This document shows positions 45,321-61,313 of a DNA stretch of 64,000 nt, in pieces (positions within the stretch are counted from its first letter, which is position 1; every line of letters begins with the position of its first letter). A program made the translations under genes and the position numbers. The notes beneath the pieces are model-generated. The model did not search any database, was not told the DNA's origin, and saw only the letters and a list, made by a program, of their open reading frames with translations. Where the stretch lies: assembly GCA_964583985.1 (NCBI GenBank), contig CAZOYD010000001.1, positions 67,532-131,531 on the forward strand, read 5' to 3'. The stretch comes from an uncultured archaeon. Lineage in GTDB: Archaea; Asgardarchaeota; Lokiarchaeia; Sigyniarchaeales; SOKP01.

Positions 45321-45485
45321 CGGGCTATGAGGGATTTCCAACGGTTTGAGAGTTTCAAACGTCATATTGAACCCCCGACTTGCCGGTGTCTCAAAACGCA
45401 AGTAATTAAGCGCTAGATAAGAGCCGGACGCGCTACCTGATTGCACTAAAAGCGTGGGGTACGCTTAAATCTGCGCTAATAGCCC
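45321..45485 (-). tRNA. tRNA-Lys(CUU) with three introns (15/16, 37/38, 59/60)
   Basis: Removing 45441-45470, 45388-45417 and 45335-45365 gives a 74-nt cloverleaf: GGGCTAT/ATAGCCC, GCGC/GCGC D stem, CTCTTAA loop, GGGGG-TTCAATT-CCCTC. Confidence 0.85.
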
Positions 45486-59614: not shown

Positions 59615-60304
59615 TCATATAAAATCGGTAAATTTTTTCGAGTATAATTCTTCGCGAATTATTTTTTTCGTTGTTTCCCATGAATTTCTCGCAATAGGGG
59701 GAGCTTTCTTATGCGTTCTAACCCAGTCACGAAGGAAAGTAGTACTCCGCAAGTCTGATGGATACCCTGATCCAAAATCTCCATATTTATTCTTTAGTTC
59801 TTCAATGATTCTATCTCTCTTATCTTTAGCAATTATTGAACTTGCTGACACGATTGGATATGAATCATCGGCCTTATGTTTAGAAATGATTTTTTTTGGC
59901 GAATAATTTAGCAATTTAGCAATTGAACGCCCAAATCGATCTTCTTTAACATCAGCAGCGTCAATATATACAAAATCTGGTTTTAAGTGATTTATTATTT
60001 CAGCCATTTTTAATTCTTCAAGGTGATTTAATGAAATTCTAAGAGAAAGTCTTTCATCAATTTCTTTCGGTGATACAATCACGTTTTGATAAGAATAGCA
60101 TATTGATTTTATTTTTATAGATAATTCGCTTCTTTTTCTCATTGTTAATTTCTTCGAATCCTTCACTCCCAAACGTGAAAGTAAATTGATATTTTCTTCG
60201 AGAAAGCAAACACCACAAATTACCATTGGGCCTAGAACGGGTCCTGTCAACATATAATTCGATATGAATTATATTCTACCAGCCTCATCTAATCCACAGA
60301 TCAA
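59615..60304 (-). CDS. rnhB: Ribonuclease HII, interrupted by a 30-nt intron (exon 1 60304-60276, exon 2 60245-59615; 219 aa spliced)
   Basis: TTG ATC TGT GGA TTA GAT GAG GCT GGT AG|A GGA CCC = MICGLDEAGRGPVLGPMV after removing 60246-60275; DSKKL, IDAAD, HKAD, VSASSIIAK, GSGYPSD; C-terminal PIP-like KKFTDFI. Confidence 0.92.
60246..60275 (-). other. Putative BHB-type mRNA intron in rnhB
   Basis: 30-nt insert with in-frame TAA; perfect 9-bp hairpin ATATAATTC/GAATTATAT; 3-nt bulges AG|A and AC|A around a 4-bp helix UGGU/GUUG. Confidence 0.82.
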
Positions 60305-60305
60305 T

Positions 60306-61313
60306 TTAGAGGTTATTTGCTGTTCCTTTGACGAGTTCGATAAATTCATCTTCGTTATCTATATTTTCTAAATCTCTAACTTTTACAATTGGTATGACGT
60401 TATTCTTAGTAGTATCAGATACGTTAATGTCATTGTTTATAATTAAAAGACTTTTTTTTTGAAACAGATTTGTAAATATTTTCAAGCAATTTAAATTGAT
60501 TTCAGAAATTTTTTTCTGTTCTTCAGAGATCCCAGAAAAGATAGGATAGATATTGACTTGTTTTTCAGAAGATGAATAAATTGAAAATTTGAACGGGATG
60601 GGTCCCTTACTATACCAGTATGTTGACATTCCAATATCCTCAATTACGTCATTGATATGAGCTTCAAAAGGATTTAAATCTTTTTCTTCCCCAATAGTTG
60701 ATTCTTGAAATTTGAATTTTATTTTCCAACTAAAAGGGTCCATTCTTTTTAGGATCATATTATCGTGTAATGTTTCAAGAATTTTTAAAGCAATACTTTC
60801 CGATGGTCTCATGCTGTCATTTTCATAAGCACATACGGTTCTTTTCGTAACTCCCAACTTTTCAGAGAGTTCTTTTCTTGAAATTGATTCTGATTCTCGT
60901 TTAAATTTCATTAATTGCCCATCCAAGAAGATAATGCCCCCTCCTCGCCTTGCTAAGATGTAGGGATAGTCATCATGTTCGATTATTTTTTGAAATGTAT
61001 TCATTGAAATAAAGGGTAATCCATATCGCATATAGACGGAATTATCCTCTAATTGTTGATACCTATTTCTAAGTCCAATCAATAATGGTTTTGATTTGAG
61101 TAATAATGATAGTGATTTAATGTCATTTACTAATTCAATATTAAGATTATCGATATTTGGAAATATTTTAACACTAAAAATAGAGTCTTTTTTTTTTGCT
61201 AGTAAATCAAAACAAAATTTATTCTTCTTATCGTTAAAATTATCAAGCAAAAAAGTCTCAAAATTAGCTTTTAGTAATATGGTATTAATTTTTTCAATAA
61301 TTTCACTAATCAT
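60306..61313 (-). CDS. Archaeal XRE-HTH transcriptional regulator (COG1395-like)
   Basis: CFDLLAKK, LEDNSVYMRYG, ARRGG, SRKELSEKLGVTKRTVCAYEN HTH. Confidence 0.82.
   Translation of the reverse strand: MISEIIEKINTILLKANFETFLLDNFNDKKNKFCFDLLAKKKDSIFSVKIFPNIDNLNIELVNDIKSLSLLLKSKPLLIGLRNRYQQLEDNSVYMRYGLPFISMNTFQKIIEHDDYPYILARRGGGIIFLDGQLMKFKRESESISRKELSEKLGVTKRTVCAYENDSMRPSESIALKILETLHDNMILKRMDPFSWKIKFKFQESTIGEEKDLNPFEAHINDVIEDIGMSTYWYSKGPIPFKFSIYSSSEKQVNIYPIFSGISEEQKKISEINLNCLKIFTNLFQKKSLLIINNDINVSDTTKNNVIPIVKVRDLENIDNEDEFIELVKGTANNL

Follow-up and report, generated by a model that had tools for sequence, protein, structure and literature searches.

The closest described counterpart of the locus analysed here is the BHB intron in the pre-mRNA of the crenarchaeal gene cbf5, which Watanabe in 2002 and Yoshinari in 2006 reportedly described. 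The gene codes for a pseudouridine synthase, its intron occurs in Desulfurococcales and Sulfolobales, and cleavage takes place between bulge residues two and three (Yokobori 2009, PMC2738675). Within coding sequence, cbf5 was the only BHB intron found in the open-access literature that was searched; it keeps the place of the established mRNA case that a preliminary description of the present locus had given it. In Asgard archaea and Thermoproteales, non-canonical tRNA introns with HBh' or hBH motifs (10.64898/2026.10.13.758758; PMC5829648) measure approximately 20-30 nt, and combine a 3-4-3 motif with a hairpin inside the intron. The former source, a 2026 preprint, deals with Asgard tRNA introns and does not mention mRNA. 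In eukaryotes, splicing of HAC1 and XBP1 through IRE1 also proceeds independently of the spliceosome: stem-loops of the mRNA are cut by an endonuclease, whereupon a tRNA ligase, which in animals is RtcB, links the exons into the functional reading frame. Finally, in T4 gene 60 ribosomes bypass a gap of tens of nucleotides next to a stop codon and a hairpin, a process that needs matched take-off and landing codons and no cutting of RNA.

Here we analyse an insert in rnhB, the gene for RNase HII, of an uncultured Asgard archaeon; the window, i.e., the whole stretch of DNA under study, comprises 64,000 nucleotides. Judged by the names that its closest protein relatives bear, the organism is a member of the Promethearchaeota/Lokiarchaeota. 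The insert is very probably an intron whose splicing is obligatory and is carried out by EndA and RtcB, where excision and ligation, as well as the identity of the two enzymes, are what we infer from the sequences. Splicing of rnhB would extend a known mechanism, BHB splicing of mRNA, to a further gene and to a phylum new for it, and this assignment is supported by comparisons of unusual depth, which are outlined below.

Both cbf5 and rnhB harbour a short intron at the codon of a catalytic residue, which adopts a relaxed BHB and is cut, or in rnhB predicted to be cut, between bulge residues 2 and 3 by a hetero-oligomeric endonuclease. Moreover, the cbf5 intron is ancestral in its clade and repeated losses have left a contiguous motif, a history that is also the likely one for rnhB. 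The two cases differ in the gene and in the phylum (Crenarchaeota versus Asgard/Promethearchaeota), and while cbf5 splicing was demonstrated by cDNA and in-vitro cleavage, splicing of rnhB is deduced from comparative data. Unlike cbf5, rnhB shares its genome with other interrupted protein genes. The tRNA introns share with the rnhB insert its size, the 3-4-3 motif, the hairpin and the presumed enzymes, yet in rnhB the host molecule is an mRNA, the exon strand of the helix includes codon wobble positions, and the junction has to keep the reading frame. The preliminary description had also drawn a parallel to IRE1 and HAC1/XBP1, which holds for spliceosome-independent splicing with a tRNA ligase, but not for the endonuclease, an unrelated kinase-RNase rather than an EndA/Sen homologue, nor for the motif or the regulation by stress; the likeness is one of analogy only. 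Gene 60 resembles rnhB in its gap, stop codon and hairpin, whereas rnhB lacks matched take-off and landing codons.

The interrupted rnhB gene and its distribution

On the minus strand rnhB reads TTG ATC TGT GGA TTA GAT GAG GCT GGT AGA ATA TAA TTC ATA TCG AAT TAT ATG TTG ACA GGA CCC GTT. The catalytic DEAGRGP motif is split by a 30-nt insert (60275-60246), such that the codon AGA (60277-60275) is followed by an in-frame TAA (60271-60269), and the motif resumes with GGA (60244-60242). Our reading of the sequence confirmed this arrangement as previously described, including an intact remainder of the gene: 209 codons are open downstream of the insert, up to the stop at 59615 (ORF 59615..60253). 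Exon 2 (59615..60245, minus strand) consists of a single A followed by GGA CCC and the further codons to the stop, and its 209 RNase HII codons include the remaining catalytic Asp residues. Exon 2 alone is recognized as RNase HII (PF01351, E 6.7e-41), covering profile positions 8-199 only. Positions 1-7, the CG(L/I)DEAGR segment, are encoded just 5' of the insert, where exon 1 specifies CGLDEAG.

Exon 1 (60276..60349, minus strand) ends with the AG (60277-60276) of the Arg codon and codes for MNLSNSSKEQQITSKLICGLDEAG plus two thirds of the Arg codon, including the catalytic Asp and Glu. The preliminary description had let the gene start at TTG 60304-60302. An ATG at 60349-60347 lies upstream within the open exon-1 frame, and its product, MNLSNSSKEQQITSKLICGLDEAGR, is similar at the N-terminus to intron-less relatives such as MMKRNSLSSSKNQGTNQEVICGIDEAGR. 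Because of this similarity, and since the close relative L004 has ATA in place of TTG 60304, the ATG is probably the start codon, which would render exon 1 74 nt long. With this ATG, rnhB would overlap the 3' end of the upstream gene (60306-61313) by 44 nt; the latter is read in a different frame and has an ortholog on another contig with matches to PDDEXK_19 and HTH_3.

When the whole genome was searched for the family in six frames, PF01351 positions 1-199 were recovered at the rnhB locus by reading through the single TAA, and no second RNase HII gene was found in this 100%-complete genome, while a type-1 RNase H gene is located elsewhere, on contig C17. A second intact rnhB copy and relaxed dN/dS had been put forward as signs of pseudogenisation; the genome holds a single RNase HII locus, and selection on the gene is not relaxed. 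For exon 2, comparison of this genome with its three nearest relatives yields dN/dS values of 0.10-0.12, and there are pairwise values of 0.10-0.42 among intron-bearing species, close to the 0.11-0.25 of intron-less pairs. All 80 intron-bearing species retain CG(I/L)DEAG in exon 1, and the only changes in its codons are synonymous ones. Both exons are under purifying selection and the gene is alive; given the single locus in a complete genome and a truncated ORF devoid of Pfam positions 1-7, rnhB is needed. In the nine pairs compared, the divergence of synonymous sites exceeds that of the intron itself by a factor of 1.3 to 13, as expected if the intron is under structural constraint.

We looked for rnhB first in 40 relatives and subsequently in the genomes of 134 species of the family; the latter provided 131 usable loci, whose N-terminal regions were aligned at the residue with which exon 2 begins. 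At the identical site, 80 of the 131 species and eight of the 13 genera have an insert of 28-31 nt, and the remaining 51 loci show an uninterrupted DEAG(R/K)G. Presence and absence at this exact site, as foreseen in the preliminary description, are thus both observed, although the species share ancestry and do not count as independent events. In other families of the order no insert was found in seven genomes sampled. The inserts measure 30 nt in 76 species, 29 nt in two, and 28 or 31 nt in one species each. In every one of the 80, the exon-1 frame runs into a stop codon; four have a length that is not a multiple of three and breaks the frame at the DNA level, and in 31 the exon-2 frame offers no ATG, GTG or TTG beyond the last stop. 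The insert recurs in independent assemblies, among them two single-contig genomes (G083 and G084), which contradicts an origin as an assembly artefact.

On the rnhB gene tree, the pattern of presence and absence requires 15 changes by parsimony, at least seven of which are forced by well-supported branches, with gains and losses not being separable. Most introns can be aligned with each other, and every intron-less gene has a contiguous motif. The sequence similarity among most introns favours one old intron followed by several precise losses as the simplest history, as for cbf5, with a direction that the tree does not prove.

Probable splice sites and RNA structure

In three species (L114, L115 and L127), the DNA reads GGG AGU ... 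AAA GGN and the Arg codon is split as AG/U...A/A (slashes denote cuts). Here, Arg can be encoded only once AG has been linked to the A that ends the insert, and hence the cut sites are fixed by the data. Across all 80 species, a single pair of cuts restores DEAG(R/K)G, namely after the second base of each 3-nt bulge, i.e., the same position as in cbf5 introns (PMC2738675). The cuts AG/A GGA proposed on the EndA rule are therefore the only ones that work throughout, and they define the intron as 60275-60246, with cuts after G60276 and after C60246. The restored codon is AGA in 76 species, AGG in three and AAA in one, in each case followed by GGN; Lys at this position also occurs in the intron-less relatives L089 and L102. 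Bulge 1 reads AGA (75 species), AGU (three), AGG (one) or AAA (one), and bulge 2 reads AAA (56), ACA (ten), AUA (ten) or another triplet (four), the final base always being A or G. Insert lengths of 28, 29, 30 and 31 nt all lead to one and the same protein junction. For the present genome, the spliced RNA would comprise GCTGGTAG joined to AGGACCC, that is GAGGCTGGTAG joined to AGGACCCGTTC, and the protein spanning the junction would contain the peptide LICGLDEAGRGPVLGPMVICGVCFLEENINLLSR.

In the window's own sequence, where all features lie on the minus strand, central helix H has as its exon strand UGGU (60278..60281), which is composed of the Ala wobble base, GG and the Gly wobble base, and pairs with the intron strand GUUG (60248..60251). 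The 5' bulge AGA (60275..60277) would be cut between G60276 and A60275, and the 3' bulge ACA (60245..60247) between C60246 and A60245, where A60245 provides the third base of the Arg codon. Between them lies the intron hairpin h' (60252..60274), which pairs 60274-60266 (AUAUAAUUC) with 60260-60252 (GAAUUAUAU) around the loop AUAUC (60265-60261) and contains the TAA. Of the fold put forward earlier, the hairpin (9 bp, 5-nt loop) appears in both the MFE and the centroid structure, but the UGGU/GUUG helix is absent from the MFE. Its four pairs are all possible and all G-U, and the outer exon-exon helix in strict register amounts to one invariant C-G pair, which agrees with the caveat of a relaxed BHB already voiced in the preliminary description. 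In a 57-nt context at 37 C, adopting the BHB conformer instead of the MFE carries a penalty of approximately 10 kcal/mol (-2.6 versus -12.8), and a 76-nt fold reaches a z-score of only -1.5. Due to the weak G-U helix, this energetic cost and the low z-score, the predicted BHB is no better than chance when judged from this one sequence. On the other hand, 80 species conserve the structure at this very site, with covarying bases, and this places it far beyond chance.

The structure alignment (80 sequences, 75 of them distinct, with the structure assigned by hand) shows standard pairing in 90.6% of cells and both-sided changes in 11 of 16 pairs, a covariation score that was matched by none of 500 shuffles; the covarying stems anticipated for relatives are thus present. 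If the 3' partners are slid by 1-3 columns, pairing falls to 25-43%. In hairpin h', 88% of cells pair and eight of the nine pairs have changed on both sides. In helix H, 93.3% of cells pair, and double changes are found in two of the four pairs. All four H pairs can form in 59 of the 80 species and three in the rest, while the MFE includes three or more of the four central-helix pairs in only 20. Variants of this helix comprise UGGU/ACCA, UGGU/GUUA, UGGC/GUUA, CGGG/CCCG, UGGG/CCCA and AGGG/CCCU, and accordingly, the exon wobble positions of the Ala and Gly codons covary with the intron strand. The wobble base of the Gly codon is A in none of the 80 intron-bearing species versus 19 of 44 intron-less family members, a comparison whose weight is limited by shared ancestry. 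Between the UGGU/GUUG of this genome and the UGGC/GUUA of its nearest relatives lie two transitions, and both pairs stay wobbles.

Based on the 9-bp hairpin h' and an outer helix h of just one pair, the motif is best called HBh' rather than full hBHBh', following the classification of the preprint 10.64898/2026.10.13.758758. HBh' motifs are cleaved by hetero-oligomeric EndA enzymes (PMC5829648). An outer helix of 3 bp (94.7% paired) is obtained only if the 3' bulge is taken as 4 nt.

Two further features of the alignment are of note. The C-G pair closing the hairpin, together with the two bases at the end of its loop (U-C), is completely or almost completely conserved in the 80 species (columns 25-31, 60266-60260), even where the stems have been wholly replaced, and the BHB model does not require this. 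The conserved bases might ensure a stable loop, or might serve a function of the excised, probably circular, intron. Moreover, in genus g22, the largest intron-bearing clade (e.g., L036, L057 and L075), DEAGRGS replaces the otherwise invariant DEAGRGP through a change from CCN to UCU. In a 5-pair register of the outer helix, the U of this second exon-2 codon would pair with the A of the Glu codon.

Taken together, the 30 nt at 60275-60246 would constitute a relaxed HBh' BHB intron of the rnhB pre-mRNA, in which exon UGGU and intron GUUG form the 4-bp central helix flanked by the bulges AGA and ACA, and the 9-bp hairpin serves as the inner helix. EndA, composed of a catalytic subunit and a second paralogue, is predicted to cut after the second base of each bulge, and RtcB would then ligate AG to A-GGA, yielding ...DEAGR-GPVLG.... 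Ligation would return two of the four catalytic carboxylates to the front of the enzyme. In an unspliced message, translation would halt two codons into the intron.

Candidate splicing enzymes, public records and rival explanations

The genome encodes two EndA paralogues (PF01974) and one RtcB (C1:155665-156978). For the EndA gene at C4:51753-51977, the best matches are catalytic alpha subunits of crenarchaeal heterotetramers (3p1z_B, 2cv8 and 2zyz_B, from Aeropyrum, Sulfurisphaera and Pyrobaculum), and the second one, at C3:71349-71597, is more divergent. Asgard EndA belongs to the (alpha-beta)2 type with a loop that confers broad specificity (PMC5829648), and the enzyme of this organism is likely a heterotetramer that accepts relaxed motifs.

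Several protein genes of this genome, rnhB among them, are interrupted; cbf5 itself is uninterrupted. A covariance model of the rnhB intron retrieved as the next-best genomic match C27:35872-35910 (E 0.15), which corresponds to the first of three hairpin inserts in the gene for uL11 (C27:35761-35904, outside the window). These inserts are 31, 35 and 28 nt long, and their removal restores the N-terminus of the protein; in insert 1, helix H is UGGG/CCCA and the bulges are AAC and AAA. The same model detected no second close copy of the rnhB intron in the genome, and hence there is no evidence for a mobile sequence family.

Introns are also common among the tRNA genes. ARAGORN reports only 22 tRNAs in this 100%-complete 3.8-Mb genome, 13 of them with introns, whose boundaries are not precise enough for bulge compositions to be compared cleanly. 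Non-canonical introns presumably conceal many tRNA genes, as has been described for Asgard archaea (10.64898/2026.10.13.758758). Within the window, a tRNA-Lys(CUU) gene of 165 nt (45321-45485, minus strand), which seems to contain several inserts of approximately 30 nt, was missed by ARAGORN. A BHB motif scan recovered one of these inserts (29 nt, H = GAUU/AAUC), which falls into the size class of the rnhB intron.

In public records, the RNase HII proteins of these genomes begin at the intronic ATG with MLTGPVLG or MLKGPVLG (212 aa), or with MLKGSVLG in the Gly-Ser clade (213 aa). Sixteen protein clusters of 78-100% identity from ENA, JGI, Logan and NCBI assemblies share this start; they are named ribonuclease HII where the source names them, and lack positions 1-7 of Pfam RNase_HII. 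The gene callers consequently behave as had been supposed. An exact-pattern scan of JGI metagenome contigs, with a junction pattern degenerate for the organism's own clade and the Gly-Ser clade, returned 71 loci, none of which closely resembles an intron-bearing species; the best family-like matches are intron-less types with 84-86% nucleotide identity. Likewise, a junction-spanning 62-aa peptide of the Gly-Ser clade retrieved from 5.8 billion proteins only truncated (82% coverage) or intron-less Gly-Pro proteins. As rnhB is weakly expressed and transcripts of the lineage are scarce, these negative results say little. Two proteins of 221 aa, P0115 and P0085, were considered as spliced products and rejected, since they stem from ordinary genomic contigs of intron-less species.

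Every sequence-level prediction of the BHB-intron reading was borne out, and it is splicing itself that this reading adds to the observations. Excision from the RNA might be real and yet be carried out by a nuclease and ligase other than EndA and RtcB, or on a relaxed structure that is not a BHB. Such a scenario would suit the thermodynamically poor BHB of the organism's own sequence, as well as the near-invariant closing C-G pair and U-C loop bases. We nevertheless regard it as improbable, since the cut positions, the 3-4-3 geometry, the helix covariation and the size of 30 nt match tRNA introns of the same genome and cbf5. To our knowledge, no other archaeal system makes such cuts. Alternatively, the ribosome could bypass or read through the insert in the manner of T4 gene 60, where the break is also soon followed by a stop and then by a stable hairpin, and no RNA processing would be involved. 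This seems very improbable: the take-off and landing codons do not match (AGA or AGU before the gap versus ACA or AAA before GGN), no hop yields Arg from the split codon of the three species mentioned above, and a recoding event would have to deliver one protein junction from four gap lengths, while the covariation between exon wobble bases and intron is nothing that hopping needs.

Explanations that dispense with a contiguous product fare no better. rnhB could be expressed from the intronic ATG as a truncated protein, or as two peptides, with exon 1 being a relic; indeed, a 212-aa ORF starting MLTGPVLG is called, and an AUG at the junction of hairpin and helix is common in the family. Such a protein would be devoid of the Asp and Glu of DEAG, its start codon is missing in 31 of the 80 species, CG(I/L)DEAG is conserved in all 80 with nothing but synonymous change, and intron-less relatives keep the segment contiguous; hence, we give this reading as little credence as recoding. 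Least credible of all is a recent disruptive insertion that turned rnhB into a pseudogene, or an artefact of assembly. An in-frame stop within an invariant motif and a palindromic, AT-rich hairpin as the insert are what either would look like, yet the insert recurs in 80 species and in numerous assemblies made independently of each other, some of them single-contig genomes, dN/dS lies at about 0.1-0.4, rnhB is present in a single copy, and intron-less lineages feature a contiguous DEAGRG. Introns of other classes were rejected as well, self-splicing ones because they far exceed 30 nt, and spliceosomal ones because the rnhB insert bears no spliceosomal signals. An obligatory intron processed by EndA and RtcB is the reading that we adopt.

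Implications for the family

Beyond this one gene, we lean slightly towards the view that rnhB is the visible case of a genome-wide set of obligatory, endonuclease-spliced mRNA introns across this Lokiarchaeia-type family, which would be conserved from genus to genus, make use of wobble positions as a component of the splice signal and always bear a stop. If this is true, the 30-nt circles that are released, with a loop that is conserved, might also be functional in their own right. Public annotation is systematically in error, as the deposited RNase HII proteins of these genomes lack two catalytic residues. The family also offers a natural experiment on the co-evolution of exon coding and splice signals, with 80 variants, precise losses and splice sites that are exact to the nucleotide.

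With an intron probably located 74 nt after the start codon, the question arises how coupled transcription and translation are reconciled with an unspliced message. A housekeeping enzyme of DNA repair and replication would depend on the enzymes of tRNA splicing, and, provided that the genome-wide view is correct, these prokaryotes would routinely have to complete the splicing of mRNA before translation, or in competition with it.
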